From an uncultured Oscillospiraceae bacterium (GTDB taxonomy: Bacteria > Bacillota > Clostridia > Oscillospirales > Oscillospiraceae), in the NCBI GenBank assembly GCA_949948775.1, contig CATLHC010000002.1, positions 20,211 through 84,210 on the forward strand: DNA of 64,000 bases, read 5' to 3'. Of this stretch, positions 1 to 60,151 are shown one piece after another. Both the position numbers and the translations under genes were made by a program. A model generated the notes under the pieces. That model was given only the letters and a program-made list of their open reading frames with translations. It did no database searches and was not told where the DNA came from. Positions within the stretch are counted from its first letter, which is position 1. Each line of letters starts with the position of its first letter.

Positions 1-666
1 AGCTTCGCCCAGGTGGACGACATCGTCAGCGAAGGCATTCTCACCCTGCTCAGCTCCATCGACAAGTTTGACCCGGACAAGGGCATCAAGTTTGAGACCT
101 ACGTGGCCAAGCGCATCCGGGGGATGGTCATCGACTTGGCCCGGAAGCAGGACTGGCTGCCCCGGAACATCCGGCAGCGGGCCAAGGAGATCGACACCGC
201 CGTGTCCCACCTGGCCAACGAGCTGGGGCGCTTCCCCACCGACCAGGAGGTGGCCGCCCACCTGGGCGTTGCCACCGACAAGTACCAGAAGGAGGCCGCC
301 AGGGTGGCGCTGAGCAACACCCTGTCCCTGGACGCGCTGATGGACGCCAGAGACCTGGAGGGCTATCGCTTCGAGGTGTCCACCGAGGATCCCACCGTCC
401 AGCCTGAGACGGTGCTGGAGGATCAGGAACTCCAGGAGACTCTGGCCGCGGGTATCGCCGCGCTGCAGGAAAACGAACAGATTGTGCTGTCCCTCTATTA
501 CGAGAAGAACCTTCACATGAAGGAGATCGCCCAGGTGATGGGAGTCAGTGAGCCCCGCATCTCCCAGATCCACTCCCGGGCCATCCAGAAGCTGCGGGAG
601 CACATGGGCACATACATGAACAGCGAAGCCCCCCAAAAACCATCCAAAAAGCGGAAGAAGGCATGA
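1..666 (+). CDS. fliA: Flagellar RNA polymerase sigma-28 factor (FliA/SigD/WhiG family), 5' end outside window
   Basis: DKFDPDKGIKFETYVAKRIRGMVID..RKQDWLPR (region 2) and VLSLYYEKNLHMKEIAQVMGVSEPRISQIHSRAI (region 4); frame open back to the window edge. Confidence 0.95.
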   Translation, partial: SFAQVDDIVSEGILTLLSSIDKFDPDKGIKFETYVAKRIRGMVIDLARKQDWLPRNIRQRAKEIDTAVSHLANELGRFPTDQEVAAHLGVATDKYQKEAARVALSNTLSLDALMDARDLEGYRFEVSTEDPTVQPETVLEDQELQETLAAGIAALQENEQIVLSLYYEKNLHMKEIAQVMGVSEPRISQIHSRAIQKLREHMGTYMNSEAPQKPSKKRKKA

Positions 667-4305: not shown

Positions 4306-5604
4306 ATGAGCGGCAGATATATCGTGCGGCAACCCATTCGCGATGCTGCGGGCAATACTCTCGGGCAAGAGATTCTATACCACGGGGCCAACCAGGCCTT
4401 CAGCAGCGACAGCTCCACTTCCAGCGCGGAATTTGCCGCCGCCAACACCATCTACAACTTTTTGACCGACAACAGCCCCAAGGTGCTGAAGGGCACTTTG
4501 AATTTCATGACCTTTACCACCATGCTGCTGATGAAAAAAACCCCCCGGCTGTTTGACAAGAGCGATCTGGTGATTCAGATCGACGACGCGGTCATCATTC
4601 ATCCCCTGTCCATGCACCTGGTGCAGCAGTACGTTAAGGAGGGCTACCGCGTTGCGGTGAACGACTTCCAGTTCACCCCCCGGTATCTCTCCCTGCTGGA
4701 CGACATCCATTTCATCAAGATCAACGGCAAGACCGCCACCGAGGTCACGATGCGCAATACGGTTGAGATTGCCCACAGCATGAACATCAAGTGCATTGTT
4801 ACCAACATTGACGACGCCAAGCTTTACCAGCAGGCGGTGACTCTGGGCGCGGATGGCCTGGAGGGCCCCTATGTGGCCGACAAGCTCACCACCAAGGCCC
4901 ACAGCAGCGCCTACATCCAGAGCAATTTCTTCCAACTGATGGTGGCGGTCACCAAGGATGAGCCCAACGTGGACGAGATTCAGCAGATGATCGCCGCCGA
5001 CGCCAGCCTGTCCTACGGCCTGCTGAAGATGGTCAACTCCGCTTACTTTGCCCTGCGCCACCGGGCCACCACCATTACTCAGGCCATCATGACCCTGGGT
5101 CTGGGGCAGCTGAAGCAGTGGATCTATCTGCTCAGCGCCAGCAACGCGGAAAATGAAATAGAGCCGGAGTCGGAGGAGTTCCTGAAGCGCTCCTTTATGC
5201 GGGCCAATTTTTGCAGTGAGCTGATGAACTATGCCAAGAATATGCCCATCTCCAAGTCGGAGGCTTACCTCATGGGCATGTTCTCCACCCTGAACTACCT
5301 CATCGACGCCCCTATGGATGAGATTTTGGAGGAGGTTCCGGTGGCCGACGAGATTAAGGCCGCTCTGCTGCGTCACGAGGGGCGCTGCGGCATGCTGTAT
5401 GACCTGGTGCTCAGCTATGAGTCCGCCGACTGGGAGCGCATCACCAAGCTGGCGGAGGAGCTGGGGATTCCGGACAACATGATGACCAGCGTTTATTTCA
5501 TTTGCATGGAGAATGTGGACAGTCTCTGGGAGCAGCTCACCAATCCCTATCCCCAGCAGCAGCCCGCCGCCGAAACCGTGCCGCAGGGCGGAGCGGGGAC
5601 ATAA
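4306..5604 (+). CDS. EAL + HDOD domain protein (YuxH/PdeH-like), EAL domain degenerate
   Basis: RQPI...EIL EAL-like N-terminus; DASLSYGLLKMVNSAYF..ITQAIMTLG..YLMGMFS HDOD domain. Confidence 0.88.
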   Translation: MSGRYIVRQPIRDAAGNTLGQEILYHGANQAFSSDSSTSSAEFAAANTIYNFLTDNSPKVLKGTLNFMTFTTMLLMKKTPRLFDKSDLVIQIDDAVIIHPLSMHLVQQYVKEGYRVAVNDFQFTPRYLSLLDDIHFIKINGKTATEVTMRNTVEIAHSMNIKCIVTNIDDAKLYQQAVTLGADGLEGPYVADKLTTKAHSSAYIQSNFFQLMVAVTKDEPNVDEIQQMIAADASLSYGLLKMVNSAYFALRHRATTITQAIMTLGLGQLKQWIYLLSASNAENEIEPESEEFLKRSFMRANFCSELMNYAKNMPISKSEAYLMGMFSTLNYLIDAPMDEILEEVPVADEIKAALLRHEGRCGMLYDLVLSYESADWERITKLAEELGIPDNMMTSVYFICMENVDSLWEQLTNPYPQQQPAAETVPQGGAGT

Positions 5605-5611
5605 AAGGATA

Positions 5612-5658
5612 AAAAATCTCTGGCGGACCGATTCGTCCGCCAGAGATTTTGGCTTTTT
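5612..5658. terminator. Bidirectional intrinsic terminator between convergent HDOD and ComFB genes
   Basis: AAAATCTCTGGCGGAC-cgattc-GTCCGCCAGAGATTTT inverted repeat flanked by A/T runs. Confidence 0.85.
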
Positions 5659-6359
5659 CAGTCCCGACTGTGGTGGGGGGTGGCATGGACCACCTTGCAG
5701 GCCTGGAGCAGCTGGGCCGTGATATCGCTGCTGAACTTGCCCTCGTACACGCTCAGGCGGGGGACCCGGTCGCCCGGCTCCAGCACCACATATTTGGGGG
5801 GCAGATGATTCAGAGTATAGGCCTTCACGTCCTCCATGCACCGCCGGCAGGAGCACAGGCCGAACATCTCCACATATTTGGGGGCCTTCTCCTCCACGAG
5901 CACCTGCATGACGTTGATGTAGCCGGGGTTTTCCGGCTCAAGCGGTTCCTCCCACCGGGTGGTCGCTTCGGGCACGGGTTCCGCAGCGGGAACGAATTCG
6001 GGCTGGGACTCCGGCTCGGGCTGGGGGACGGGCGCGGCGGCTTGAACCGGCTCGGGCTGAGGCGCGGGCGCCGCGGGCTGGACGGGTTCCGGCTGAGGCT
6101 CGGGCTGGGGCTGAGGCTGGGACTCGGGCTGCGGCGCTGTGGGCTGCGGGCTGAACTCCCCTTCCAGAGCGTCCTCCAGGGCGTTCTTGATCTGCACCGA
6201 TACGGCGGCGTCGGGCGCCATGGAGGTGACAATGGGGGGAACGGGGGCCGCGGGGGTGGCAGGACCCCCGGCTGCGGCCTCTTCGGCGGCGGGGTCCGGC
6301 TTCTTGCTCAGCAGGCTCATCACCCGCGCGGTTTTACTGGTCTTGTCCTTAGATGCCAT
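5658..6359 (-). CDS. ComFB-domain protein with N-terminal basic peptide and Pro/Gln/Glu-rich linker
   Basis: C-terminal INVMQVLVEE...CSCRRCMEDVKAYTLNHLPPKYVV...VHATPHH matches the ComFB pattern (CxCxxC..D....LN.LPPKY..PxH). Confidence 0.85.
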   Translation of the reverse strand: MASKDKTSKTARVMSLLSKKPDPAAEEAAAGGPATPAAPVPPIVTSMAPDAAVSVQIKNALEDALEGEFSPQPTAPQPESQPQPQPEPQPEPVQPAAPAPQPEPVQAAAPVPQPEPESQPEFVPAAEPVPEATTRWEEPLEPENPGYINVMQVLVEEKAPKYVEMFGLCSCRRCMEDVKAYTLNHLPPKYVVLEPGDRVPRLSVYEGKFSSDITAQLLQACKVVHATPHHSRD

Positions 6360-6376
6360 GATGCGATGCTCCTTAC

Positions 6377-7189
6377 TCAGTTGAAAAATTTAGAGATATA
6401 TTTTTGCTTAAAACTCTGTTTTGGCCGGGGGAAGCGCTCGCCGGCCACCGCGTCTACGATCTCTTGAAAGTCCTGGGCCGGTCGGGAGTCGGGCTGATAG
6501 GTGAGCACGCTCTGCCCGTGGGCCGGCGCCATAGCCACGCCTACGCCGCGGTGGATTTTGGCCTGGAACACCTGGCTGCCCAGCTGGCTGGCCACCTCCT
6601 GAGCCAGCTCCAGGATATCTTTGGAGAGCGTGAGCCGCCCGTTGAATTTGTTGATGAGAATGCCAATGACCTTTAGGTGGGGATTGAAGGCGTCCCGCAC
6701 GGTCTCAATGGTCTCTTGGAGCTGGGTGACGCCCACCAGGCTGAGCACCTCCGCCTCCATGGGAACAATGAGTCCGTCGGAGGCCACGTAGGCGTTGACG
6801 GTGAGGATATTCAGCGCCGGCGGCGTGTCGATGATGATGAAGTCATACTTAGAGCGCACGCCGGTGAGCAGATCGCTGAGCATGAACTCCCGGCGGGGGG
6901 CGGTGAACTCCACCTCCGCAGCGGACAGCATGATGTCCGAGGGCAACACGTCGCCGTACTCGGTGGACGCGGTGGCTTCCTCGATGGAGCAATTCCCTTT
7001 AAACACGTCGTACACGGTACTGCTGGAGCCGATATCCAGCCCCAGGGTGAAGCCCAGGTTGCCCTGAGGGTCCAGATCGATGCCCAGAACCTTGGCGCCG
7101 CGCTGGTGAAGACCGCACACCAGAGCCGAGGCGGTGGTGGTTTTGCCCACGCCTCCTTTTTGATTTGTGACAGTGATGATCTGAGTCAA
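6377..7189 (-). CDS. ParA/Soj-family ATPase (orphan, no adjacent parB)
   Basis: Deviant Walker A NQKGGVGKTTT, DLDPQGN, IIDTPPAL; probable TTG start at 7189 after AAGGAAGGG (ORF extends to 7210). Confidence 0.92.
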   Translation of the reverse strand: MTQIITVTNQKGGVGKTTTASALVCGLHQRGAKVLGIDLDPQGNLGFTLGLDIGSSSTVYDVFKGNCSIEEATASTEYGDVLPSDIMLSAAEVEFTAPRREFMLSDLLTGVRSKYDFIIIDTPPALNILTVNAYVASDGLIVPMEAEVLSLVGVTQLQETIETVRDAFNPHLKVIGILINKFNGRLTLSKDILELAQEVASQLGSQVFQAKIHRGVGVAMAPAHGQSVLTYQPDSRPAQDFQEIVDAVAGERFPRPKQSFKQKYISKFFN

Positions 7190-7229
7190 GGAATATTCCC
7201 TTCCTTTCACAAAAACTTGGGGAAAAGTC

Positions 7230-7257: not shown

Positions 7258-7373
7258 AAAAGAACAGAGGTACGGCGAAAAAACTGTGAAAAAATTTTTA
7301 GAAATTTTCCCGTTGATTAGGCTTGGGACGGGGCATTCCGCCCATAAGTTTGGATAGAAAGGAGCGATCCGAG

Positions 7374-10223
7374 ATGGCGTCCATCACCAGTATGAGCAAC
7401 AGCAGCTACAATACCAGCAGTATTTACGGCAACCGAAATGTACTCAGCGGACTGGCCAGCGGCATGGATACCGAGTCCATGATCGAAAATGCGGTATCCG
7501 GCATTAAAATCAAGATACAGAACCTGATTAAGAAGCGCACCAAGGTGGAGTGGCAGCAGGAGGCTTACCGCAGCATTATTGATAAGGCGGTGAACTTCAA
7601 CCAAAAGTACACCTCTTACTCCTCCAAGACCAACCTGCTCAGCCAGAGCTTTTTCAGCAACGCGGTGAACACCGTCGCCAACGGCACCTATAAGGACAAG
7701 GTCACCGCCAGCGGCAAGTCCTCCAGCGACATCAAGATCAACGCGGTGAAGCAGCTGGCCACCAACGCCTCCTATACGGTGTCCGGCCTGAACACCCCCT
7801 TGACCGGCACCAACGGCAGCGTCCAGGCCGCTAAGGGCTTTGATATCGCGGGAACAACTCCGGTGAGCACCGTGTCCGGTTCGCTGTCCTTCCAGTACGG
7901 CGGCACCAACGGTACGATCTTCGACATCAGGTTCGACGAGCTGGAGAACGTCAACGAAGTCAAGGTGTATAACGAGGACGGCACGGAAAAGACCGACGCC
8001 ACCAACGCTGAGAAGCTGGCCCAGGCCATCAACAACAAGCTGGGCGAGATCACTTACAGCTACACGAAGAACGGCGTCCAGGAGACCACCACCGCCGACA
8101 AGGTCGTCAAGGTGGAAGCCGATCCCATTTTCGGCAGTATCTCGCTCTCCGACGGCCTGGAGGAAGGCAATAAGGTCAATATCTGCTTTGTCTCCGGCGA
8201 CATTGAGGACACCTTGGGCATCAGCAAGGGGGACACGTCGATCCGGGGGTACCAGGCCTTTACTAAAAATGTCGACACCAGGGATTATCTGGCCGACAAG
8301 GAGCTGGGCGTCACCTTCAACGGCGTCACCAAAAAGATCAGCCTGGCCGACGTGGTCAAGAACTCCAAGGTCACAGATGACGATCCCGTCGGTACCGACG
8401 AAAACCAGAAGTTTGTGGACGCGCTGCAAAGCGAGCTGGACGACGCCTTCGGCGCGGGCAAGATCAAGGCGTCCTATGAGGACGGCAAGCTGTCCTTTGC
8501 GCCCGAAGGCAAGGGCGATACCCTGAGCGTGGGCGGCTCCGTCGTGAAGGCCCTGGGCTTTGAGGACGGGGACAGCAATTACGTCAACGCCACCAAGAAG
8601 CTGTCCGACCTGGTGGGCGAGGGCTTTTTCAAGAAAGAGAACCGGCTGATGGGCGAGTTTGACGAGGGCGCCAAGCCCACGCTGAGCAAAAACGGGACCT
8701 ACTATGTGGACAGCAAGGGCAACAGGGTGGACGAGGAGGGCTACCGCCTTAGCAATGACGACAAGTATCTCTACGACTTCCAGATTAACGACGCCCACAT
8801 CAACATCACCGAGGACACCACCCTGGAGAATCTGATGAACTCCATCAACTCCAACGCCGAGGCGGGGGTGAAGGTGAGCTACTCCAAGCTGACCAACGAG
8901 TTCAAGTTCACCGCCACCGAGACCGGCGCCAACAGCAAAATTGAGTTCGAAGGGCTGGCCAAGGATTTGTTTGCCCCCTCCGGCAAGGAGGTCAACCACA
9001 ATTTCGCGGACAACTATGGCTTCAACTGGCTGAAGGACGGCGAGACTGAGAGAATAACAGTCCAGTTGGACGGCAGTCATCTCGAATTCAACATCACGAG
9101 AGAAACAACCATGCAGGACTTTGCCAAGGCGCTCAATGAGAGTCCGGCGGGGCTGCGCGCCTCCTATAATGAAGAGACGGGCCAGCTTATGGTAACTAAT
9201 AGGCAGACCGGCGCGAAAGAGGAATTTACGGTTAAGGATCATTGGGGAGATCCCTATGAGCGCGAGGTCGAGCCCCTTGCCACCTATACCGCCGGCCAGG
9301 ACGCCATCATGGACGTGACCATCAACGGCAAGCGGTTCAAAGACCTGACCCGTTCCAGCAACAGCTTCGACATTGATGGCCTCACCGTCAACGTGAAGGG
9401 TGAGTTCAACAAGGATGGCACGGTGGAGGCCGACGGCACCGTGAAGGACGCCGAGGGCAATGTTGTGGACCCCATCACCTTCACCACCACCACCGATTCC
9501 GACAAGATCGTTGACACCATCCGGGAGTTCGTCAACGATTACAACGAGATGATCACCGAGATCAAGAACCAGTATTCCACACAGCCCGCCTACAAAAACA
9601 AGAACACCCGGTACGAGCCCCTCACCGCCGAACAGGAGGAGCAGTATTCCGAGAGCGAGCTGAAGGCCTACAACGAGAAGGCCAAGCAGGGCATTTTGTT
9701 CGGCGACTCCAACCTGTCCAGCATGTACAGCAAGCTGCTCAACGCCATCCAGCCCGGCGGCACCGACGGCCAGACCCTGCGGGAGATCGGCATCGGCACC
9801 TCCTATGAGGGCGGCCTGACCACTCTGAGTCTGGATGAGGATAAGCTGCGCGCGGCGCTGGACAGCGACCCGGACAAGGTGAAGAACGCCTTTGCCAAGA
9901 CGAGGGAGAGCGGCTCCGCTTCCGACGGCCTGATGAAGAACATGCAGAAGACCTTGGACACCTATGTCAAAACCACTGGTGAGCCCAAGGGCGTGCTGAT
10001 CAACCGGGCCGGCTCCATCAAGGCGTATACCTCGCTGAACAACAACAGCCTGAAGAGCCAGATCGACAACATCGATCAGCAGATCGAGCGCTGGGAGAAC
10101 AAGATGTCCGACCAGATCGACCGCTATACCACCCAATTCAGCCGCCTGGAGCAGCTGATCGCCGAGATGAACTCCCAGTCCTCCGCCTTCTCGGGCCTGA
10201 TGGGCGGCTCCTCCGGCTACTAA
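7374..10223 (+). CDS. fliD: Flagellar filament cap protein FliD (unusually long, about 950 aa)
   Basis: SGLASGMDTESMIE N-terminus, QLAT, GQDA, RSSNSFDIDG, FVNDYN, LFGDS, RYTTQFSRLEQLIAEMNSQS C-terminus; ATG at 7374 after AAGGAG. Confidence 0.95.
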   Translation: MASITSMSNSSYNTSSIYGNRNVLSGLASGMDTESMIENAVSGIKIKIQNLIKKRTKVEWQQEAYRSIIDKAVNFNQKYTSYSSKTNLLSQSFFSNAVNTVANGTYKDKVTASGKSSSDIKINAVKQLATNASYTVSGLNTPLTGTNGSVQAAKGFDIAGTTPVSTVSGSLSFQYGGTNGTIFDIRFDELENVNEVKVYNEDGTEKTDATNAEKLAQAINNKLGEITYSYTKNGVQETTTADKVVKVEADPIFGSISLSDGLEEGNKVNICFVSGDIEDTLGISKGDTSIRGYQAFTKNVDTRDYLADKELGVTFNGVTKKISLADVVKNSKVTDDDPVGTDENQKFVDALQSELDDAFGAGKIKASYEDGKLSFAPEGKGDTLSVGGSVVKALGFEDGDSNYVNATKKLSDLVGEGFFKKENRLMGEFDEGAKPTLSKNGTYYVDSKGNRVDEEGYRLSNDDKYLYDFQINDAHINITEDTTLENLMNSINSNAEAGVKVSYSKLTNEFKFTATETGANSKIEFEGLAKDLFAPSGKEVNHNFADNYGFNWLKDGETERITVQLDGSHLEFNITRETTMQDFAKALNESPAGLRASYNEETGQLMVTNRQTGAKEEFTVKDHWGDPYEREVEPLATYTAGQDAIMDVTINGKRFKDLTRSSNSFDIDGLTVNVKGEFNKDGTVEADGTVKDAEGNVVDPITFTTTTDSDKIVDTIREFVNDYNEMITEIKNQYSTQPAYKNKNTRYEPLTAEQEEQYSESELKAYNEKAKQGILFGDSNLSSMYSKLLNAIQPGGTDGQTLREIGIGTSYEGGLTTLSLDEDKLRAALDSDPDKVKNAFAKTRESGSASDGLMKNMQKTLDTYVKTTGEPKGVLINRAGSIKAYTSLNNNSLKSQIDNIDQQIERWENKMSDQIDRYTTQFSRLEQLIAEMNSQSSAFSGLMGGSSGY

Positions 10224-10253: not shown

Positions 10254-10673
10254 ATGGACAGAAAAGGGTTCCAGGGGTATCAGGGTTACAAGGAGCAGGG
10301 CATCAATGATATGACCCCTGGGGAGCTGCTCATGCTGCTGTATGATGAGCTGGTTAAGCGCCTGCTGCGCGCGGGCCTTGCGCTGGATAAAACGGATTAC
10401 GCACTGTTTGAGGCCAGTGTGGACCGCAGCTTGGAGATTATCCGCTACCTGGACGACACCCTGGATATGCAATATCCTATCAGCCGGAATCTGAACCGCC
10501 TGTACGATTACTTTGGCTTCGAGCTTAACCGGGTGAAGGCCGGGCGGAACAGAACCGAGCTGGACCGGGTCAAGACCATGGTAAGCGAGCTGCGGGACAC
10601 CTTCCGGGAGGCGAACAAAAACGCCCTTCAGGAATTGGCCGGCGCCGCGGCCGAAAGCCAGGCTGGGGGCTGA
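10254..10673 (+). CDS. fliS: Flagellin export chaperone FliS
   Basis: YKEQGINDMTPGELLMLLYD..LDMQYPISRNLNRLYDY..ELRDTF; directly after fliD. Confidence 0.93.
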   Translation: MDRKGFQGYQGYKEQGINDMTPGELLMLLYDELVKRLLRAGLALDKTDYALFEASVDRSLEIIRYLDDTLDMQYPISRNLNRLYDYFGFELNRVKAGRNRTELDRVKTMVSELRDTFREANKNALQELAGAAAESQAGG

Positions 10674-10677
10674 TCCC

Positions 10678-11076
10678 ATGGGGGAAAAGGCTGTGATGGA
10701 TGCTCTGGTGCAGATGAAGCGCACGGGCAACCTGCTCAATGAGCTGTGGGACCTGACGCAGCAGCTGGGTCAGTCCATCGACCGCAACGACCAGGTAAGT
10801 ATGCAGATGTTGATTGCCATGAGGGAAGAGCCGCTGGGCAAGCTTCAGGCGGCGGACCAGGCCCTGCGGGAGCAGCTGGAAGCCCTTCCCGACAGGGAGG
10901 AGGCCCGGCAGCTGGCCGGTATGCTCAACGGCGGCCCCCCTGTGGACCCGGCTCAAAAACCCCCGCAGCTGCTGTGCGAACAAGTGGCTTCCAACAACCG
11001 CCGGCTCAAGCAGGTGATCGATCTGGACCGACTGCTGAACCAGCGGTTGGGCCGAGAAAAGTCAGTCTACCAATAA
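10678..11076 (+). CDS. Helical flagellar accessory protein (FliT/FlgN-like chaperone position)
   Basis: 132-aa helical protein co-oriented after fliD-fliS; assignment by context only. Confidence 0.55.
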   Translation: MGEKAVMDALVQMKRTGNLLNELWDLTQQLGQSIDRNDQVSMQMLIAMREEPLGKLQAADQALREQLEALPDREEARQLAGMLNGGPPVDPAQKPPQLLCEQVASNNRRLKQVIDLDRLLNQRLGREKSVYQ

Positions 11077-12216: not shown

Positions 12217-12993
12217 ATGCCCACCATTTATTTGGAACACGTTTCAAAATTCTATAAGCCCAAGCGAAGGCGAAAGGGTCCTGTGCACCAGGATATGGGT
12301 GTGGAGGATGTGGACCTAACCATTCACCAGGGAGAGTTTGTTTTCGTGGTGGGAGGCAGCGGCGCGGGAAAGAGCACGTTGCTGCGCCTCATGACCGGCG
12401 AAACGAAGCCCAGCCAGGGGGCGGTGTATCTGGGGGACCGGGATCTGAATCGGGCGCTGCTGCTCAGTCGCAACCGGATGTCGACGATGTTCGGCAAAAT
12501 CTGGCAGGACCCCACTCTGATCCGAAAAAAAACCATTGGGGAAAATTTAGCCCTGGCCTCCCAGATTGCCGTGGGCCGGGAGAGCGCCCGCGTGGTGGAC
12601 ATCCGCATCAAAAAGGTATTGGGCCTGGTGGGAATGAAGGGCGTGGAACGCAAATATCCTGTGGAGCTGTCCATCGGAGAGTGCCGCCGGGTGGAGCTGG
12701 CCCGGGCCCTCATTGGAAGTCCGCCGATCCTCGTGCTGGATGAGATCACCGCTAACCTGGATGACGACTGCATCTGGGATACGCTTCATCTACTCAACGA
12801 CGTGAACCGCCGGGGCACCACCGTCGTCATGGCCACCCATGACAGCCAGTACGTGAACATCCTCCGGCGGCGGGTCATCACCATGTCGGGCGGTCGGATG
12901 ATCAAGGACGAGCAGAAGGGAAAATACGGCGATGTGCTGGAAAAGGAACGGAAACCCCTGTCCCTCTCCAAGCTCAGAACCGATTTCATATAA
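12217..12993 (+). CDS. FtsE-like ABC ATP-binding protein without adjacent permease
   Basis: GEFVFVVGGSGAGKSTLL, altered signature LSIGECRRV, DEITANLD, GTTVVMATHD, FtsE-like tail RRVITM..G..IKDEQKGKY. Confidence 0.85.
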   Translation: MPTIYLEHVSKFYKPKRRRKGPVHQDMGVEDVDLTIHQGEFVFVVGGSGAGKSTLLRLMTGETKPSQGAVYLGDRDLNRALLLSRNRMSTMFGKIWQDPTLIRKKTIGENLALASQIAVGRESARVVDIRIKKVLGLVGMKGVERKYPVELSIGECRRVELARALIGSPPILVLDEITANLDDDCIWDTLHLLNDVNRRGTTVVMATHDSQYVNILRRRVITMSGGRMIKDEQKGKYGDVLEKERKPLSLSKLRTDFI

Positions 12994-30991: not shown

Positions 30992-32413
30992 ATGCCTGAT
31001 CTTTTGGGAGCGACCAACCCGGTACCGGGTCATGACAATACGATAACCAACCGCAATATCCCAATTTCCCCCAATAACTCACAGGTCCAGAACGTCCCCG
31101 ACCTGGACCGGGTGACAAAGACAGACCGCCGCACCGAGCAGCAGGATTCCAGCCAGACCGAGGGGCGGGTGCGGTACGACTCCAACTTTCAGACCTTTAT
31201 CCAGCAGCTGCGCCGGACCCAGGACCTGAGCTCCACCATGTCCAAGCTGATGATGCGGGAGGGCACCTCGGTCTCCTCCGGCATGAGCGAGGGCATCGCC
31301 GAGGAGATGGCCCAGGCCATGGAGATGCTCAAGATGGACCCGTCGGAGCTGCTGAAGTTCCTCTCCGCCCAGATGCGGGCGGGCACGCGGTTCGGCGGGG
31401 CGCTGTTCGCCCTGCTGCGCAACGCCTACGCGCGGGCGGACGCGGAGGGAGTCCGGCAGGACATCCTCAACTTTTTAAAAAGTTACAGCGATTTTTCCTC
31501 CACCGCCCACATTGAGGGCAATCTGGTGCGCAACCTGACCAACATGGCCAACGCCATGCCCGCCAGCTGGGGCGATCAGCTGCGCCAGCTGCTGGCCCAG
31601 CTGGAAAACGGCATCGCCGCCGGGGACCGGCAGGGGAATATCAGCCTGCTGCAGCAGAAGGTGTTCCCCCTCATGTCCGCCTACGTCAGCCAGACCCACG
31701 ATCTGGGCATCCCCCGGGAGCTGCTGACCCTGCTGGCGCTGGACCTGTCCCGCTATGAGAACGGGGCGGAGGATAAATTGATTGAAACGTTCCATCAACT
31801 GGCCGGGTACGGCACTTTAAAAGGGACGCTGGGGGGCATCGACGGACAGTCCCTGATGCAGCTGCTGCAAAACAGCCAGTTCGCGAAAAACACCGCCGCC
31901 GCCCAGTTTGCCGACCACCTGGCCGCCGCCGCCGCCCGGGCCCTGCGGGGGGAGGGCAGCGCCGAGGTGCAGGACGTGTTCCGCAACCTGGTGCGCGCCA
32001 TGCTGGTGAACGAGAGCGTGTACATGCCCCTCAACCACTTTCTGATCCCCATGGAGATGGATGATAGGATGCTCTTCTCCGAGCTGTGGGTGGACCCCGA
32101 CGCCGAGGAGAAGAACGAGCGGGGTCAGAACGAGAAGTGCATGAAGTTCCTGTTCAAGCTGGACGTGCAGGGCCTGGGTTTCTTCGACGTGGTCCTCTCC
32201 GCCAAGGAGCGGGACGTGGGCATTGTGGTGTCCTGCCCCGAGGGGGTGGCCCCCTTTTCCAAGGAGATCGAGCAGAACATCACCAAGATCCTCACCCGCA
32301 ACGACCTGCGGCCCGCCGCGGTCAGCGTGCGGAAGATGGAGCGCCCGGTGACGCTCACCGAGGTGTTCCCCAAAATTTTTGAAGGGAAGAACAGTGTCAA
32401 TGTCAAAGTATGA
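30992..32413 (+). CDS. FliK-like C-terminal domain protein (YlqG-like)
   Basis: C-terminal ELWVDPD..FLFKLDVQGLGFFDVVL FliK_C-like segment; overlaps an FlhB-C-like gene, a typical pairing. Confidence 0.65.
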   Translation: MPDLLGATNPVPGHDNTITNRNIPISPNNSQVQNVPDLDRVTKTDRRTEQQDSSQTEGRVRYDSNFQTFIQQLRRTQDLSSTMSKLMMREGTSVSSGMSEGIAEEMAQAMEMLKMDPSELLKFLSAQMRAGTRFGGALFALLRNAYARADAEGVRQDILNFLKSYSDFSSTAHIEGNLVRNLTNMANAMPASWGDQLRQLLAQLENGIAAGDRQGNISLLQQKVFPLMSAYVSQTHDLGIPRELLTLLALDLSRYENGAEDKLIETFHQLAGYGTLKGTLGGIDGQSLMQLLQNSQFAKNTAAAQFADHLAAAAARALRGEGSAEVQDVFRNLVRAMLVNESVYMPLNHFLIPMEMDDRMLFSELWVDPDAEEKNERGQNEKCMKFLFKLDVQGLGFFDVVLSAKERDVGIVVSCPEGVAPFSKEIEQNITKILTRNDLRPAAVSVRKMERPVTLTEVFPKIFEGKNSVNVKV

Positions 32414-32744
32414 CGGCAGGCGCAACCCGTCCAAGAAGGCGGTGGCCCTTCAATACGAGGCGGGGGACAGCGCGCCGGTGATCGTGGCCTCCGGCATGGG
32501 CTATATGGCCGAGAAAATCGTGGAGGTGGCCGCCGACAGCGGCGTGCCCGTTTATGAGGACAACTCCCTGGCCACCATCCTCACCCAGCTGAAGTTGGGA
32601 CAGGAGGTGCCCGAGGAGCTGTACAAGGCCATCGTGGAGATCTATGTGTATTTCCTGCATTTCGACCCCAACCGGGTCAAGGAGGGCTCCGCGCCCAAGG
32701 CCGCGGGGAACCATGAGCAGACACAGGCGGAACAGGAGGAGTGA
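32400..32744 (+). CDS. FlhB C-terminus-like protein (EscU/YscU family, FlhX/YlqH type)
   Basis: KKAVALQYE..APVIVASGMGYMAEKIVEVA..VPVYED..L..L..GQEVPEELYKAIVEI. Confidence 0.92.
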   Translation: MSKYDGRRNPSKKAVALQYEAGDSAPVIVASGMGYMAEKIVEVAADSGVPVYEDNSLATILTQLKLGQEVPEELYKAIVEIYVYFLHFDPNRVKEGSAPKAAGNHEQTQAEQEE

Positions 32745-32746
32745 GG

Positions 32747-33349
32747 ATGGAGCAGACTATTTATCTGCTGCTGGACAGCAAGGGCGCCGCCGTCGCCCGG
32801 GGCAGAATTCAGGGAAGGACCGACGGCCCGTTTTGGCAGATTCAGGTGGAGGACGGCAAGATCGACGACGTGCTGACCCATAAGAAGCTGAAACTGCTGT
32901 CTATTATGGATGCGGGTCCCTCCTACGAGGGAACCATTGTGCGCAGCCGCAACGATATGATCCAGCTGGAGGTCTCCAGGCTGGAGCGGGACGGCGGAGA
33001 TATGCGCAAAAACCTGCGGGTGCCGGTCCGCTTCAAGAGCTTTATTTATTCGATCACCGGCGGCTGGCGGGGCAGGCGGGAGATCACGTCCAACGATCTG
33101 AGCTGCGGCGGCATCGCCTTTTTCACGGAGCACTCCCTCCAGGTGGGGGAGCAGCTGGAGGTGGTGGTGCCCGTCACCACCGAGCCGCTGGTGGTGCGCT
33201 GCCAGGTGCTGCGCATGCGCCCCACGGAGGACGCGGCCATCCCCATTATGTACGCCGCCAAGTTTGTGGAGCTTTGCAACGACGAGGAGACGCTGCTGCG
33301 GGAGGCGGTGTTCAACCTCCAGCTGCGGGGAAGGCCGAAAACAAGCTGA
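32747..33349 (+). CDS. PilZ-domain c-di-GMP receptor
   Basis: RKNLR (RxxxR) and NDLSCGG (D/NxSxxG) motifs. Confidence 0.88.
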   Translation: MEQTIYLLLDSKGAAVARGRIQGRTDGPFWQIQVEDGKIDDVLTHKKLKLLSIMDAGPSYEGTIVRSRNDMIQLEVSRLERDGGDMRKNLRVPVRFKSFIYSITGGWRGRREITSNDLSCGGIAFFTEHSLQVGEQLEVVVPVTTEPLVVRCQVLRMRPTEDAAIPIMYAAKFVELCNDEETLLREAVFNLQLRGRPKTS

Positions 33350-54693: not shown

Positions 54694-56118
54694 ATGGCGG
54701 ACCAATACGGTCCCGGCGGACCCGACCCGCGGGACGGCCCGGAACAGAACAATACGTATCACTACAATTACAGCTACGGCTCCGGCTCGGGCCGGGGGAC
54801 CGGCGGGTCCAAGCCGCCCAGACGCTCCGACGACTGGGGGGAGTGGATCGGCATCGGCTTGATGCTGTTCATCCTGCCCTTCTGGTTCTGCAAAGTCATC
54901 GGCGTGATTTGGCTGCTGAACAAGCTGGGCAAGATGACCGCCGGCGACAAGCGCCGCTATAAGCAGGAGGCCAAAAACGCCGCCAACCGGGCCAGGAGCA
55001 CCGCCCAGCACCTGTTCCAGCAGGGGACGGACGCCGCCCGCCAGGCCGCCGACAGCGTCCGCCAGACGGCGGATACCGCCCGTCAGGCTCAGGCCGCGCC
55101 CGGCGGCGGGAGCACCTATCACTACCAATACAGCCGGTCCAAGGGGGAGAAAAAGGCGCAGGCCCAGGACGAGCCCTGGGAGCGGAAGGACAAGGCCGGG
55201 AGCTGGAACCAGTCGGAGAGCGGTCGGAAGAGGGCCCGGAAAAAGGCGGGCGGCGGCACCGGACTCATTGTGGGAGGCGGCGTTTTGACCGCTATTTTCG
55301 GGTTCACCGTGTTTACCCTTGGCATCATCGGGGCGGTGGAGAACGTGGCGGAAATGCTCATCCCCATTGGCATCTGCCTGCCCTTCCTGGCGGGAGGCGT
55401 GGGAATGCTGGCCTCCGGCATTGGCCGCAACCGCCGCAGTGAGCGCTACCTGAACTACCTGGCCTATATCGGCGCAAACCGGGAGGTGGCCTTGGCCCCC
55501 ATGGCCGCCGCCTTCGACGTGTCCGTGGGTAAGCTGTGCAAAGATTTGCGGCGGATGCTGTCCAAGGGCATCCTGCCCACAGGGTATCTGGATTTGGCTG
55601 AGGGCAAGCTGTACCTCACCGAGATGGGCTACCACGCCCCCGAACCCAAGCGGGAGGCCCCGCCCGTCCAGGAGGAGACCCCCCAGCAGGCCGCCGCCCG
55701 GGAGGACGACATCCTGCGGGAGATCCGACAGGTCAACGACGAGATTCCCGATGAGGTGATGAGCGCCAAAATCGACCGGATCGAGGAGATCACCCGGAAG
55801 ATCTTAAACTTCCAGAAGGCCCATCCCAATAAGGAAAGCCAGCTGCGCACCTTCCTGAACTATTACCTGCCCACCACCCTGAAAATCCTGCGGGCCTATG
55901 CCCAGCTGGACGCCCAGGGCATTGAGGGGGAGAACATCTCCGCCGCCAAAAAGCGCATCGAGGACATGATGGACCAGGTGGTCTCCGGGTTTGAGAAGCA
56001 GCTTGACAAGCTGTTCCAGGACGACGCCATGGACATCACCTCGGACGTGGAGGTGCTGGAGAACATGCTCAAGAAGGACGGGCTGTCCGACGAGGGCGGG
56101 ATCACCATGACATTGTAA
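54694..56118 (+). CDS. XpaC-like (5-bromo-4-chloroindolyl phosphate hydrolysis family) membrane protein
   Basis: TM segments plus C-terminal LRTFLNYYLPTTLKIL..Y..FEKQLDKLFQDDAMDITSDVEVLENML..DGL. Confidence 0.85.
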   Translation: MADQYGPGGPDPRDGPEQNNTYHYNYSYGSGSGRGTGGSKPPRRSDDWGEWIGIGLMLFILPFWFCKVIGVIWLLNKLGKMTAGDKRRYKQEAKNAANRARSTAQHLFQQGTDAARQAADSVRQTADTARQAQAAPGGGSTYHYQYSRSKGEKKAQAQDEPWERKDKAGSWNQSESGRKRARKKAGGGTGLIVGGGVLTAIFGFTVFTLGIIGAVENVAEMLIPIGICLPFLAGGVGMLASGIGRNRRSERYLNYLAYIGANREVALAPMAAAFDVSVGKLCKDLRRMLSKGILPTGYLDLAEGKLYLTEMGYHAPEPKREAPPVQEETPQQAAAREDDILREIRQVNDEIPDEVMSAKIDRIEEITRKILNFQKAHPNKESQLRTFLNYYLPTTLKILRAYAQLDAQGIEGENISAAKKRIEDMMDQVVSGFEKQLDKLFQDDAMDITSDVEVLENMLKKDGLSDEGGITMTL

Positions 56119-56242
56119 AGCGAGGATCAGCTGTTCTTCCTCAGCCGGACAAACTTCAAGCTGGTGTAATGGGGCGCCCTGGCCGCTGTGGATATCAGGA
56201 CCTGGGTCCGTAAGGACAGGTCATGGCGCTCCATGTTTGTCC

Positions 56243-56279
56243 GTACGCAGGGGTTTCCAAAACCCCTGTGTACTTTTTT
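56243..56279 (+). terminator. Intrinsic terminator
   Basis: GTACGCAGGGGTT-tccaa-AACCCCTGTGTAC followed by TTTTTT. Confidence 0.8.
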
Positions 56280-56300
56280 CAGGGGTTTTAAAACCTGAAG

Positions 56301-56325
56301 TGTCCAATCTTTTGGGTACGGTTGA
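56301..56325. mobile_element. Possible isolated IS3-family terminal inverted repeat remnant
   Basis: TGTCCAATCTTTTGGGTACGGTTGA resembles IS3/IS150-type right ends but has terminal GA instead of CA; no transposase nearby. Confidence 0.35.
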
Positions 56326-56398
56326 ATAGTAAGCAGCGCCTAAAATTACAAAAGTCATTGCGGCAGTTTGAAGCCAACCATACAAGCATGGTTTCCAC

Positions 56399-56427
56399 TT
56401 GAAATCGTCCCGCCCAAAGAGTAAAAT
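56399..56427 (+). promoter_or_regulatory. Sigma-A promoter of ychF
   Basis: TTGAAA-N17-TAAAAT. Confidence 0.7.
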
Positions 56428-56487
56428 GGCGTAGAAATGGCGTAGACGTTTCAGAAACCGTTGAAAACAAAGGAGTTGTGAGGATAT

Positions 56488-57585
56488 ATGAAGTTAGGCA
56501 TCGTGGGACTTCCCAACGTGGGAAAGTCCACTCTGTTCAACGCCATCACCAATGCGGGCGCGGAGAGCGCCAACTACCCCTTCTGCACCATTGAACCCAA
56601 TGTGGGTATCGTAGCCGTGCCGGACAGCCGCCTGGACTGGCTGAGCGACTTTTACAAGCCCAAGAAGACCACCCCCGCCGTGGTGGAGTTCGTGGACATC
56701 GCTGGGTTGGTGAAAGGCGCCTCTAAGGGCGAGGGCCTGGGCAACAAATTTTTGGCCAATATCCGGGAGTGCGCCGCCATTGTCCACGTGGTGCGGTGCT
56801 TCGATGACGAGAACGTCATTCACGTGGAGGGCTCCACCGACCCCGTGCGGGACATGGACATCATCGACCTGGAGCTGATCATGGCGGACGTGGAGATGGC
56901 GGACCGCCGCATTGATAAGGCCAGAAAGGCCGCCAAGGCGGACAAGAAATTCAACCATGAGGCGGAGGTGTTCGAGGGCCTGCGGGATTGGCTGAACGAC
57001 GGCAAATCCGCCCGGTCCTATCTCAGTGAGGTGGACGAGGAGGACGGTGAGCTGATCGCCACCAGTGAGCTTTTGTCCCTCAAGCCGGTGATCTACGCCG
57101 CCAATCTGGATGAGGACGGGTTTGCAGATCCGGCAGGCGTACCTTATTATAATCAGGTAGCGGAGCGGGCCGCCGCCGAGGGCGCCCAGGTGATTCCGGT
57201 GTGCGCCAAGCTGGAGGCAGAGATCGCCGAGCTGCCCGCCGACGAGAAGGCCATGTTCCTGGAGGACCTGGGTATCGCCGAGTCTGGCCTGGACCGGCTC
57301 ATCCGCGCCAGCTACACGCTGCTGGGGCTCATCTCCTTCCTCACCTCCGGTGAGGACGAGTGCCGGGCCTGGACCATCACCAGGGGTACCCGTGCCCCCC
57401 AGGCGGCGGGCAAGATTCACACCGATTTCGAGCGGGGGTTCATCCGGGCGGAGACGGTGGCCTTCGAGGATTTAAAGAACTGCGGCTCCATGTCCGCCGC
57501 CAGGGAAAAGGGCCTCATCCGCTCCGAAGGCAAGGAGTATGTGGTGCAGGACGGGGATATCATCCTGTTCCGGTTTAACGTGTAA
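56488..57585 (+). CDS. ychF: Ribosome-binding ATPase YchF
   Basis: [62 protein letters not shown]. Confidence 0.98.
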
Positions 57586-57908
57586 GGCCGTTTTCATCCA
57601 TCAAGCCCTTGGAAATACTGGGAGCCGCCGCTTTTATGCGGTGGCTCCTTTTGGCGTTTTGCCCTTACCCTACCCTTACCGGGATTTTCTACTGCATACG
57701 ACAGATACAGAATCGTCACAAATTGTTGGCTTGGAGTACAGCATGGGAGCGCCATCATCGGATATTGTCCGGTGGTGGCACTCCGTATCTTTTTGTATTA
57801 AAAAATTAAAAGCAGATGTATAAAACGCGCTCAATTGAGGAAAAACCTCAAATGGATGTTGATTTTGTTGGGGCTTGCATATATAATAATAATTAGGGGG
57901 TAGTTTAT

Positions 57909-59186
57909 ATGCTAATACAATTTTGCTTTAAAAATTTCAAATCATTTCGTGATGATACAATTTTAGACTTATCTGCTACTAAAATTACGGAAAACAGCAA
58001 CCATGTAATCCATATCGGAACAGAAAAAATATTGCCCATAGCGGCTATATATGGTGCAAATGCAAGTGGGAAGTCAAATGCCATTGATGCATTTCGCTTT
58101 ATGGCAATTTATGTGTTGGATTCTTTTGCCTATGGCGGTGAAAATGATGACAAGAAGTCAAGATCAAAGAGGCTAAAGCAGACACCATTTCTTTTTGATA
58201 CAACAAGCAAAGAAAATGTTTCGTCCTTTGAAGTACATTTCATTTCTTCCGAAAATGAAGGAAGCAAATGCTATAACTATGGTTTTACTTTAGATCAAAA
58301 TGGAATTGTAGAAGAGTGGCTCAATTCGAAGGCAAGAACTGCTAGAGAATATAGGAGAGTCTTCTATAGAAACAGATTAGAAAAAGAATTAGACTTGTCT
58401 GGATTGTCAGCCAATCGGCAAGAAAATATTAAAATTGCGTTAGAAAATGAAACGTTAATTGTATCTCTTGGAGCCAAATTGAAAATATCTAAACTTAAAC
58501 TCATTCGCGATTGGTTTTATGATTCAAACATAGCGGATTTTGGCGACCCCATTGAAAATGCATTTTTGTCGAGACTCATTCCACCTGGGTTTGCAGATGA
58601 TAAGGCAGTTCAAGATAAAGTTGTTAAATATTTTTCTGCTTTCGATTCGTCAATCATTGGATTTAATGTTGAAACTATTGCTTCAGATGATGGCGATGAT
58701 GATTCCAAGCATATAAAAATTGATGCAGTGCATAGAATTGCGGATTCTAACGAAACTGCGACAATCCCATTGGCAGAAGAATCTGCCGGCACATTAAAAA
58801 TGTTTGCTCTTTATCCTGCTTTACAAGACACTCTTGAAAACGGAGGAGTATTATTTGTTGACGAGTTAAATGCCCGACTCCATCCTTTGTTAGTGCGAGC
58901 GTTCTTGGTTGCATTTCTAAATCCTGAGACTAATCCTAAACATGCTCAACTAGTCTTTACGACCCATGATTCTTGGCAACTTTCGAACAACTTGCTGCGC
59001 AGAGACGAAATCTGGTTTACGGATAAAGACTCAAACGGAGTCTCTGTGTTATATTCGTTGGCCGACTTTGTTGATAATGATGGAGTCAAAATCCGTAAAG
59101 ACGAAAACTATGAAAAGAATTACCTTTTAGGAAAGTATGGCGCAATTCCGGTCTTATCATATTTTGATATGTTTACGGGGGAATAA
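57909..59186 (+). CDS. RloA-like AAA_21/AbiEii-family ATPase, low GC
   Basis: NFKSF, IYGANASGKSN, ESAGT, DELNARLHP, QLVFTTH, RRDEIWF, YLLGKYGAIP; visibly AT-rich; TTGATT-N17-TATAAT promoter at 57859-57887. Confidence 0.9.
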   Translation: MLIQFCFKNFKSFRDDTILDLSATKITENSNHVIHIGTEKILPIAAIYGANASGKSNAIDAFRFMAIYVLDSFAYGGENDDKKSRSKRLKQTPFLFDTTSKENVSSFEVHFISSENEGSKCYNYGFTLDQNGIVEEWLNSKARTAREYRRVFYRNRLEKELDLSGLSANRQENIKIALENETLIVSLGAKLKISKLKLIRDWFYDSNIADFGDPIENAFLSRLIPPGFADDKAVQDKVVKYFSAFDSSIIGFNVETIASDDGDDDSKHIKIDAVHRIADSNETATIPLAEESAGTLKMFALYPALQDTLENGGVLFVDELNARLHPLLVRAFLVAFLNPETNPKHAQLVFTTHDSWQLSNNLLRRDEIWFTDKDSNGVSVLYSLADFVDNDGVKIRKDENYEKNYLLGKYGAIPVLSYFDMFTGE

Positions 59187-59188
59187 TT

Positions 59189-59470
59189 GTGGCAGGAGCT
59201 GATAGAACTGGAAAGCGCATTCCAAGATCAGCATTAAAAAAGCGAATCCCCGATTTGGGGAGATACTTTATTGATACGAACGCAGATGAAACCGAAGAGA
59301 AAATATATGTATGATCTCAGAGATTCGTTGCCCAAAGAGGTTCAGGGATGCAGAAAGATGTGGAATCCATGTGGGATGGTCAAATCCGCGCATTGGGATT
59401 TTGTTTGACAAATACTTTGGAACTATGTATGTAGACTGGCTGACCTCCCCAGTTTGCTGCCAAGGATTTC
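59189..59470 (+). pseudogene. RloB-like pseudogene (frameshift, internal deletion, truncation)
   Basis: GTG start 2 nt after the ATPase stop: KRIPDLGRYFIDT...ETEEK, frameshift to YMYDLRDSLPKEVQG, then another frame gives GIHVGWSNPRIGILF (RloB SNPC.E.W-like motif, degraded). Confidence 0.7.
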
Positions 59471-59503
59471 CCATTCCGGGCGTTCCCTTTGCAATGCCGC
59501 CGG

Positions 59504-60151
59504 CTAATTACCTTTGCTTCCTGTCACAGAAAAAATGACCCATTCCGCGATATTGACTGCGTGGTCGCTGATACGTTCCAGATATTTGTCGATCATCAGC
59601 AGATCCAGAATGTGCTCCCCCGCTGCGGGATTTTCAACCACCGTCTGAATCAGTACACCCCGTACTTGTGTAAAATATCGGTCGATCACATCATCATGCG
59701 CAATGACGGCTCCGGCTTCCGTAATATCTTGTTTTACATAAGAGTCCACGCTTTCGGTGACCATTTTGATGGTTTCCGCCGCCATATCCCGGATGTGGCC
59801 CACGTCCTCTGGGCGATAGCCCTCGGACAGCATGGCCAGGATGATCTCCGCAATATCGGCCGCCTGATCGCCGATGCGCTCCATGTCGGTGATAATTTTC
59901 AGCGCGGCGGAAATCTGCCGCAGATCCCGAGCCACCGGCTGCTGTTGAAGCAGAAGCTTCAGGCACAGCGACTCAATGTCCCGCTCCATCTGGTCAACCT
60001 CGGCTTCCAGCAGCTCTACCTTTTCCGCCAGCGCCTTGTCGCCGTCGCTCAGGGCCTTGGCCGCCAGTGAGATGGCCTCCTCGCACAGCGCGCCCATCTG
60101 GATCAGCTCGTTTTTCATCAGGGCAAGCTGCTCATCAAATTTGCTGCGCAT
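59504..60151 (-). CDS. phoU: Phosphate signalling protein PhoU
   Basis: QQPVARDLR..ITDMERIGDQAADI..DDVID..YLERISDHAVNIAE. Confidence 0.97.
   Translation of the reverse strand: MRSKFDEQLALMKNELIQMGALCEEAISLAAKALSDGDKALAEKVELLEAEVDQMERDIESLCLKLLLQQQPVARDLRQISAALKIITDMERIGDQAADIAEIILAMLSEGYRPEDVGHIRDMAAETIKMVTESVDSYVKQDITEAGAVIAHDDVIDRYFTQVRGVLIQTVVENPAAGEHILDLLMIDKYLERISDHAVNIAEWVIFSVTGSKGN

Follow-up and report, generated by a model that had tools for sequence, protein, structure and literature searches.

ATPases of the ParA/MinD superfamily are a general bacterial means of placing large cellular objects. Several work in cargo-positioning pairs with an adaptor, such as McdA-McdB for carboxysomes, ParC-ParP and PpfA-TlpT for chemoreceptor arrays, and PomZ-PomXY. 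To our knowledge, no ParA/MinD ATPase has been coupled to a cyclic-dinucleotide receptor. Here we describe a two-gene operon in which a Soj-like ParA ATPase is encoded directly upstream of a protein ending in a ComFB domain. The operon lies in the flagellar gene cluster of an uncultured Oscillospiraceae bacterium (GenBank assembly GCA_949948775.1, contig CATLHC010000002.1, positions 20,211–84,210); this whole stretch of 64,000 nucleotides (nt) is called the window below. The host genome is a metagenome-assembled genome (MAG) of 174 contigs that is 89% complete. The ParA-ComFB pair is real, conserved, apparently undescribed so far and tied to the flagellar gene set. With somewhat better than even confidence, we read it from comparative sequence evidence as a dedicated ParA-type ATPase and adaptor pair of the flagellar and chemotaxis gene set in Oscillospirales and some neighbouring Clostridia.

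Only in 2025 were ComFB proteins established as widespread receptors of cyclic di-GMP (c-di-GMP) and cyclic di-AMP (c-di-AMP) that inhibit flagellar function (PMC12448109). In Bacillus subtilis, ComFB (BsComFB) with c-di-GMP inhibits flagellar function, not synthesis, via an unidentified target (PMC12448109, PMC12265714). The paper on the family names neighbourhoods with pili, hfq, GGDEF and flagellar genes, besides several domain fusions, and mentions neither ParA nor MinD (PMC12448109). Our literature search returned no paper describing a ParA-ComFB pair and none treating ComFB together with FlhG. Like B. subtilis comFB, which lies beside flgM-flgK-fliD, the ComFB gene of the window is genomically tied to flagellar genes. 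Unlike the described ComFB/CdgR proteins, its product carries a 148-residue N-terminal extension, with a putative ParA-type docking peptide and a disordered linker, and has an obligatory upstream ParA. Both this architecture and this neighbourhood are absent from those listed in the family paper.

The pair is inherited as a unit and is confined to the flagellated genomes of our samples. Among 24 genomes of the genus, ComFB, the ParA orthologue and FlhA occur in the same nine; the remaining 15 have none of the three. The ParA orthologues in the genus are 85–90% identical, or 58% in the case of G013. In eight of the nine genomes the ParA and ComFB genes adjoin each other on a single contig; in the ninth (G024) a contig end splits the pair. 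A broader sample of 401 genomes from the order contains 73 genomes with FlhA and 54 with ComFB, 51 of the latter also having FlhA. We annotated ~12 kb around each of the 62 ComFB matches in this sample with the window's own proteins. A ParA stands directly upstream of a long ComFB protein in 27 of the 401 genomes, which span seven families and include the host genome. All 27 encode FlhA, and the pair was found in none of the 328 genomes lacking it. The initial annotation had held that poor conservation, or frequent occurrence in non-flagellated genomes, would refute its reading of the pair; neither is seen in this sample. Every ComFB protein with a motif-bearing N-terminal extension (see below) comes after a ParA. 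Conversely, solo ComFB genes (n = 34; 85–148 amino acids (aa) as called) have no adjoining ParA, save for one pair cut by a contig end (L011, from G024).

Wider searches recovered the same arrangement. The pair was present in one of ~395 genomes of a phylum-level sample (G793), a draw that has few genomes of the window's own order. A locus scan with the ParA as query, dominated by the generic Walker A pattern, gave four close ParA relatives (L101–L104) and the linked pair in four loci (L101–L103 and L105). The pair was seen beside fliD, cheV or flgK in MAGs labelled Ruminococcaceae, Lachnospiraceae and Erysipelotrichaceae. At least 866 close homologues of the partner exist, none annotated beyond membership of the ComFB family. 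When 1.84 billion representatives were searched with a profile built from the full-length partner, 604 clusters (at 50% identity) matched at E ≤ 1e-30, most of them from the N-terminal peptide through to the end of the ComFB domain. Both of the sampled metagenome contigs with room for a ParA upstream of the partner have one there (2/2).

The window's ParA has the nucleotide-binding motifs of a ParA/MinD-type dimerising switch, all intact: the deviant Walker A NQKGGVGKTT (residues 16–25) with its signature N-terminal lysine, GIDLDPQGN and DFIIIDTPP. The DxDPQGN and Walker B segments align to D58/D60/N64 and to Walker B of Myxococcus xanthus ParA. Pfam models AAA_31 (1.5e-52) and CbiA (6e-26) both match above their cut-offs; no NCBIfam model reaches its cut-off for this protein, MinD models falling far below. 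Among solved structures its best match is M. xanthus ParA (8RAY, 1e-44), with Soj proteins next. Identity to Soj-type ParAs is 38–42%, and the match to McdA is weak (6NOO, 2e-16). No ParB_N (PF02195) match was found on the window's contig in a profile search of the genome, which together with the open reading frames (ORFs) upholds the initial annotation of a two-gene minus-strand unit with a 17 bp gap, divergent from fliD and lacking parB. The genome's other two ParAs (contigs C73 and C31) are each adjoined by ParB; there are three ParB genes in all, each at these sites.

The closest described systems share the general plan of the pair. As in ParA-ParB systems (M. xanthus ParA, 8RAY; Soj-Spo0J), a deviant Walker A ATPase is accompanied by a partner with an unstructured N-terminus bearing Lys/Arg flanked by aliphatic residues; the partner is likewise expected to be dimeric and to present two peptides. 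Unlike those systems, the pair has no ParB/Srx, helix-turn-helix or CTPase domain and no parS, and its partner ends in ComFB. Type Ib ParA/ParF-ParG systems would follow the same logic, with a flexible N-terminal stimulatory tail joined to a C-terminal dimeric binding domain. They differ in that their distal domain is a ribbon-helix-helix (RHH) and not ComFB, while the pair occupies chromosomal flagellar loci and its partner has a long linker. By general knowledge, McdA-McdB, ParC-ParP, PpfA-TlpT and PomZ-PomXY also resemble the pair in having an orphan ParA and an adaptor with a basic N-terminal stimulatory peptide and disordered regions. Unlike in these, the adaptor domain here is ComFB. FlhF/FlhG (FleN) resembles it in that a ParA/MinD-superfamily ATPase is encoded in the flagellar cluster. 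The differences are that the pair's ParA is Soj-like, that there is no FlhF GTPase and no family-wide C-terminal membrane-targeting helix, and that the proposed activator is a ComFB protein.

Phylogenetic analysis groups most of the linked ParAs together. The tree and the accompanying column table comprise 117 ParAs: 29 of type A, eight of type B and two of type C, all linked to a ComFB partner, and 78 others. The linked ParAs of types A and B fall into a single clade with a support of 1.0, to which the chromosomal Soj proteins, the genome's own included, do not belong. The same clade contains three unlinked ParAs. Two are from plasmid-like contexts (L106 and L122) and precede ParG-like proteins of 82–114 aa with basic N-termini and RHH-like C-termini (weak Pfam support). 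The third, from an uncultured Ruminiclostridium MAG (L104:3013-4460), is 47% identical and precedes a gene for a 183-aa protein with the same docking-type peptide at its start (MSRSAKTKHVLDLV; AKTKHVLDLV). Neither ComFB nor any other Pfam domain was matched in this 183-aa protein, which could be an adaptor whose distal domain is of another kind. The partners found in this clade suggest a modular adaptor, in which the docking peptide would be retained and the distal domain swapped.

Alignment of the window's ParA to 8RAY, with columns tabulated over the 117 ParAs, allows the peptide pocket to be compared. Ten residues of M. xanthus ParA are reported to contact the ParB peptide (bioRxiv 10.1101/2025.03.14.642875). 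Eight are kept or conservatively replaced in the window: Y81, E82→D, V116, E117, L150, L152→I, L155→V and L192→F. At D110, a position altered in the pair's ParA, Met or Leu is found throughout types A and B (Met in the window), and at L187 Thr is typical of type A and Arg or Tyr of type B. The peptide pocket thus seems, from these alignments, retained but retuned, and a retuned pocket would fit a peptide whose hydrophobic register is unlike that of the ParB motif.

Such a peptide forms the N-terminus of the partner (MASKDKTSKTARVMSLLSKK) and is followed by a Pro/Ala/Gln/Glu-rich stretch to ~residue 145. The family motif of type A is [KR]x[SN]-K-T-[AS]-[RH]-V-[LM]-x-L-[LI]; in 16–18 orthologues from several families, K9, T10 and V13 are invariant and L16 is nearly so. 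The motif occurs in none of the stand-alone ComFB proteins, which begin directly at the ComFB domain. In the type B subfamily the peptide differs (K-x-L-x-K-[DE]-L-M-[FY]-[KQ]-K-I-[ML]-P), and the type C partner (family f6) is more divergent. The linker is hypervariable, ranging from ~40 to 300 aa among orthologues with no conserved composition. Within it, a short helix at residues ~50–68 (window ~6156–6212) is moderately conserved, with the consensus ALSxQIxxALExxLE. In several orthologous pairs only one TAA interrupts a shared reading frame, and AlphaFold2 (AF2) was run on one such natural read-through (L008, whose ParA is 90% identical to the window's), with Gly in place of the TAA and an alignment that mixed paired and unpaired sequences. 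In this model the predicted local distance difference test (pLDDT) score is >90 for ParA and ComFB and <50 for the linker, save one helix of up to 86. The protein is built as the initial annotation had read it from the sequence: a basic peptide at the N-terminus, then a long Pro/Gln/Glu linker, and ComFB at the C-terminal end. An adaptor of a ParA-type ATPase would be expected to combine a conserved peptide at one end with a conserved domain at the other, joined by a free tether, and at the sequence level this assignment is well supported.

The ComFB domain itself, which the initial annotation had named from the sequence alone, was verified with a hidden Markov model: PF10719 matches residues 149–228 with E 1.4e-16 and 60.8 bits (cut-off 25), over profile positions 2–83 of 83. 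No other Pfam match was found in the partner, and hence no CheW-like, methyl-accepting chemotaxis protein (MCP), ParP-type or DNA-binding domain. The domain can be aligned to the solved ComFB/CdgR proteins BsComFB (4WAI) and Synechocystis Slr1970 (8HJA) and, like them, has a Zn-type CxCxxC...C motif (C169, C171, C174 and C221). D177, A180, N184, Y190 and V191 are the equivalents of BsComFB D33, A36, N40, Y46 and V47 (roles per PMC12448109). A-L-N is kept in every ComFB of type B or type C and in the solo ComFBs other than the genome's own short one. Judged from these residues, c-di-GMP binding by the window's ComFB domain is plausible. A search for longer proteins that might represent a natural ParA-ComFB fusion gave two matches, neither of which counts as one. 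The first is a FolB-HPPK-ComFB protein. The other (L181, an ENA contig) is a 572-aa EAL-HDOD protein with half a ComFB domain, on a 2.7-kb contig with 0.22x coverage, and is most likely an assembly chimera of convergent genes.

The genes around the pair are recurrent. In one usual context, that of the window, the order is sigD-flgFG-cheCD-cheV-EAL/HDOD > < ComFB < ParA fliD-fliS-flgN; in the other it is flgK-flgL ... < ComFB < ParA fliD >. The divergent fliD-fliS-flgN arrangement is seen in at least 20 related loci, and an EAL-HDOD gene adjoins the pair in L008–L016, L059, L060, L065 and L073–L077, which belong to several families. Other neighbours are a trio of FliK-like, FlhB-C-like and PilZ genes, an HD_5 (HD-GYP-type) protein and flagellin. 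The degenerate EAL-HDOD, PilZ and HD_5 genes that recur beside the pair point to a c-di-GMP network.

These features can be combined into a mechanism. The ComFB domain would dimerise like the solved ComFB proteins and thereby offer two N-terminal peptides, each of which would dock in one of the two symmetric pockets that the ParA dimer, when bound to ATP, has at its edge. The pocket would be the same as that which receives the N-terminal motif of ParB in chromosomal ParAs, and docking would stimulate ATP hydrolysis and release. The ComFB domain would be the sensing or docking end of the adaptor, binding c-di-GMP or c-di-AMP, a protein of the flagellum or of the c-di-GMP pathway, or both. The ATP cycle of ParA could in this way be coupled to motility control, be it flagellar number, placement or activity, in lineages that lack FlhF and FlhG. 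The surface on which ParA acts might be the nucleoid, the membrane or none, given the missing Soj DNA-binding arginine. A more specific form of this proposal is a second-messenger-gated ParA/MinD system for the flagellar apparatus (its number, placement or activity) in Clostridia without FlhF/FlhG, in which c-di-GMP at the ComFB dimer decides whether the peptides engage and fire the ParA dimer. We regard this form as tentative and rather doubtful. Gating by c-di-GMP would be analogous to the CTP-driven closure of the ParB clamp. The initial annotation had made the ComFB protein the adaptor of ParA and flagellar or chemosensory placement dependent on a second messenger. Comparative anatomy and a ParA of one clade, always immediately upstream and only in flagellated genomes, bear out the adaptor; peptide binding with ATPase stimulation, c-di-GMP gating and positioning are its conjectural part.

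Several observations weigh against a dedicated ATPase-adaptor pair of the motility genes, or against parts of its proposed mechanism. The hydrophobic spacing of the peptide is unlike that of the ParB motif L-x-[RK]-x-L-x-x-L-[IM], the register being K-T-A-[RH]-V-L-x-L-L as opposed to L-G-[RK]-G-L-x-A-L-[IML]; the organism's own Spo0J carries the canonical form, L-G-K-G-L-D-A-L-M. In the AF2 model of the L008 read-through the peptide is helical, with a pLDDT of only 50–59, so that the model speaks neither for nor against docking. The position of the Soj DNA-binding arginine is Gly in the window's ParA (IHRGVGVAMAP, a segment that the initial annotation had quoted correctly together with KFNGRL). 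This residue corresponds to R238 of M. xanthus ParA, where R238E abolishes non-specific DNA binding (bioRxiv 10.1101/2025.03.14.642875), and to R189 in B. subtilis Soj. It is non-basic in 29/29 type A and 7/8 type B linked ParAs, Lys in both type C linked ParAs, and Arg or Lys in 71 of the 78 other ParAs. With this arginine missing, nucleoid riding cannot be assumed and the classical mechanism is less certain. On the ComFB side, c-di-GMP binding is uncertain: the equivalent of K/R41 is H185, and in many type A orthologues, as in the genome's short ComFB, the Asn40 position is Thr or Ser with an Asn one residue later. Because the N40A substitution strongly impairs c-di-GMP binding in BsComFB (PMC12448109) and this Asn is replaced in many orthologues, ligand binding is uncertain for much of the subfamily. 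The co-occurrence with flagella partly reflects physical linkage within a cluster acquired or lost as a whole, and related genomes are not independent. Type C pairs (L036 and L043) and L183 are not beside flagellar genes, and 28 flagellated genomes have neither the pair nor FlhF.

The most serious competing explanation is that ComFB is the true effector, a c-di-GMP-dependent flagellar brake as in B. subtilis. ParA would then be an accessory that localises, sequesters or times the brake, an ATP-dependent on/off tether with nothing positioned in the ParABS sense. The inhibition of flagellar function by c-di-GMP-bound BsComFB agrees with this, as do the near confinement of ComFB in any form to flagellated genomes (51/54 with FlhA), the short ComFB genes without ParA that occupy the same fliD-adjacent slot in L064 and L082, and the D33 and N40 equivalents kept in the window's partner. 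However, a brake leaves unexplained why a motif-intact ATPase and an invariant N-terminal peptide are maintained across families, and the Asn40 equivalent is lost in many type A orthologues. We consider this explanation unlikely, though a genuine contender. Another explanation is suggested by the distribution of FlhF. In the host genome flhA lies just upstream of the window (G000:C2:17983-19968) and is followed directly by sigD (window 1–666), with no flhF or flhG between, and no FlhF over the TIGR03499 cut-off was found anywhere in the MAG. Of the order's 73 flagellated genomes, 18 have FlhF above this cut-off (0/27 of those with the pair and 18/46 of the others), so that the pair and FlhF are mutually exclusive in the sampled genomes. 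Within family f18 the two alternate, with the pair in G091 and FlhF in G170 and G185. The pair might therefore be a functional substitute for FlhF/FlhG, with ParA setting basal-body number or placement like the MinD-type FlhG and the ComFB partner as its activator. Against this stand the 28 flagellated genomes with neither system and the largely family-bound nature of the exclusivity (all f2 have FlhF, most f28 the pair), which leaves few independent contrasts. In addition, the ParA is Soj-like, not MinD- or FlhG-like, and its C-terminal tail is genus-specific, with an amphipathicity no greater than that of shuffles. Substitution is a lead, not a result, and we judge it distinctly unlikely.

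The remaining two explanations move the pair away from the flagellum. It is quite improbable that the pair positions chemoreceptor arrays, like ParC/ParP or PpfA/TlpT, or some other non-flagellar cargo. Such a role would account for the che setting: cheC, cheD, cheV, an MCP gene and cheA/cheB all lie within the same cluster, and the pair directly follows cheV in L103. Yet the partner has no CheW-like, MCP or ParP-type domain, and the steadiest neighbours of the pair are fliD/fliS/flgN or flgK/flgL, not array genes. Least probable of all is that the pair is left over from a plasmid-type (Ib) partition system, domesticated or in decay, inserted by chance and hitch-hiking with no role in motility. 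The two ParAs with ParG-like partners in non-flagellar, plasmid-like contexts (L106 and L122) belong to the same clade, and type C pairs and L183 lie outside flagellar contexts, as such a remnant might. A remnant is hard to reconcile with two intact genes whose motifs are conserved in 27 genomes of seven families, with the absence of the pair from all 328 non-flagellated genomes, with its recurrence beside differing flagellar and c-di-GMP genes, or with a partner that has no DNA-binding domain. The dedicated ATPase-adaptor pair of the motility gene set thus remains the reading that we favour.

The coordinates of the pair and of its neighbours are collected in Table 1. The longest ORF for ParA runs from a GTG (6377–7210, 277 aa). 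The TTG at 7189, already taken in the initial annotation, is the likelier start because it has a GGAAGGG Shine-Dalgarno sequence 8 nt upstream and agrees with the start of some orthologues. The short spacer and its ribosome-binding site indicate co-transcription and coupled expression of ParA and its partner. The strong terminator lies between the partner gene and the convergent EAL-HDOD gene and closes the unit; sigD-flgF-flgG-cheC-cheD-cheV lie upstream of the pair in the window. A sigma-70 promoter scan of the ParA-fliD intergenic region gave no match. A TAAA...GCCGTA pair picked out there by eye has a spacing of ~20–21 nt, more than a SigD-type promoter allows, and no promoter is claimed. 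The C-terminal basic/aromatic tail of ParA (window 6377–6436; FPRPKQSFKQKYISKFFN) is confined to genus-level orthologues and is helical in AF2. We considered this tail (KQSFKQKYISKFFN) as a MinD/FlhG-like membrane-targeting helix and rejected it, as it is genus-restricted and its helical hydrophobic moment is not above that of shuffles.

Table 1. Features of the ParA-ComFB operon and adjoining genes (window coordinates)
Feature	Position	Strand	Evidence or remarks
ParA/Soj-like deviant Walker A ATPase gene	6377..7189	-	270 aa from TTG 7189; AAA_31 match
ComFB-domain partner gene	5658..6359	-	233 aa; ORF and Pfam
Spacer between ParA and partner genes	6360..6376	-	17 nt; AAGGAG ribosome-binding site ahead of partner ATG
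Partner N-terminal peptide, residues 1-20 (MASKDKTSKTARVMSLLSKK)	6300..6359	-	Orthologue alignment
Partner linker, Pro/Ala/Gln/Glu-rich, predicted disordered	5916..6299	-	Composition, low pLDDT
ComFB domain, residues 149-228	5676..5915	-	Pfam PF10719
Bidirectional intrinsic terminator	5613..5650	both	16-bp stem, T-runs on each strand
EAL-HDOD gene, convergent neighbour	4306..5604	+	EAL 28.9 bits, below the Pfam cut-off of 31.3
fliD, divergent neighbour	7323..10223	+	Likely true start near 7367
fliS	10254-10673	+	Downstream of fliD
flgN-like gene	10678-11076	+	After fliS

Other loci in this and related genomes carry variants of the same genes. The host genome has a second convergent EAL-HDOD > < ComFB copy on contig C170 (L002:126-1743). 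Its EAL-HDOD paralogue is 54% identical, and its ComFB is a stand-alone protein of 90 aa whose domain is 52% identical and has Thr at the Asn40 position; no ParA lies alongside. This copy suggests that EAL-HDOD and ComFB together make up a unit by themselves. The type C pairs (L036 and L043, in genomes G080 and G029 of family f6) stand among QueH, oxidoreductase and transporter genes. Their ParAs fall outside the main clade, keep the Asp of D110 and carry Lys where the DNA-binding arginine would be, and type C may be an independent recruitment. Elsewhere in the window, positions 30992–33349 hold a trio encoding a 473-aa FliK-like protein without a Pfam match, a stand-alone FlhB C-terminal-domain protein of 121 aa and a PilZ protein. 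In L032 a like gene series, with Pfam matches to FlhB-C and PilZ, lies directly before the ParA-ComFB pair; in L081 only PilZ genes are confirmed. An FtsE-like ABC ATPase without FtsX is encoded inside the flagellar cluster (window 12217–12993), and in G793 (L081:8059-8802) an ABC ATPase gene is directly divergent from the ParA gene. Positions 56001–60000 of the window have a G+C fraction of 0.485, compared with ~0.60–0.64 elsewhere, and encode a YchF-type GTPase (56488–57585) and an AAA_21/AbiEii-like ATPase (57909–59186). The latter gene may belong to an island of acquired defence or toxin-antitoxin genes.

The ParA-ComFB operon is found in flagellated gut and rumen Clostridia without FlhF/FlhG, and its partner family comprises at least ~600 clusters at 50% identity. 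With it, the ComFB motility regulators would gain a concrete, testable partner. The pair would also exemplify natural adaptor-domain swapping on a ParA-docking peptide, with ComFB in place of an RHH or ParB domain. For both the ComFB and the ParA fields it offers a direct handle: a defined peptide, a pocket, a ligand site and a phenotype to seek.

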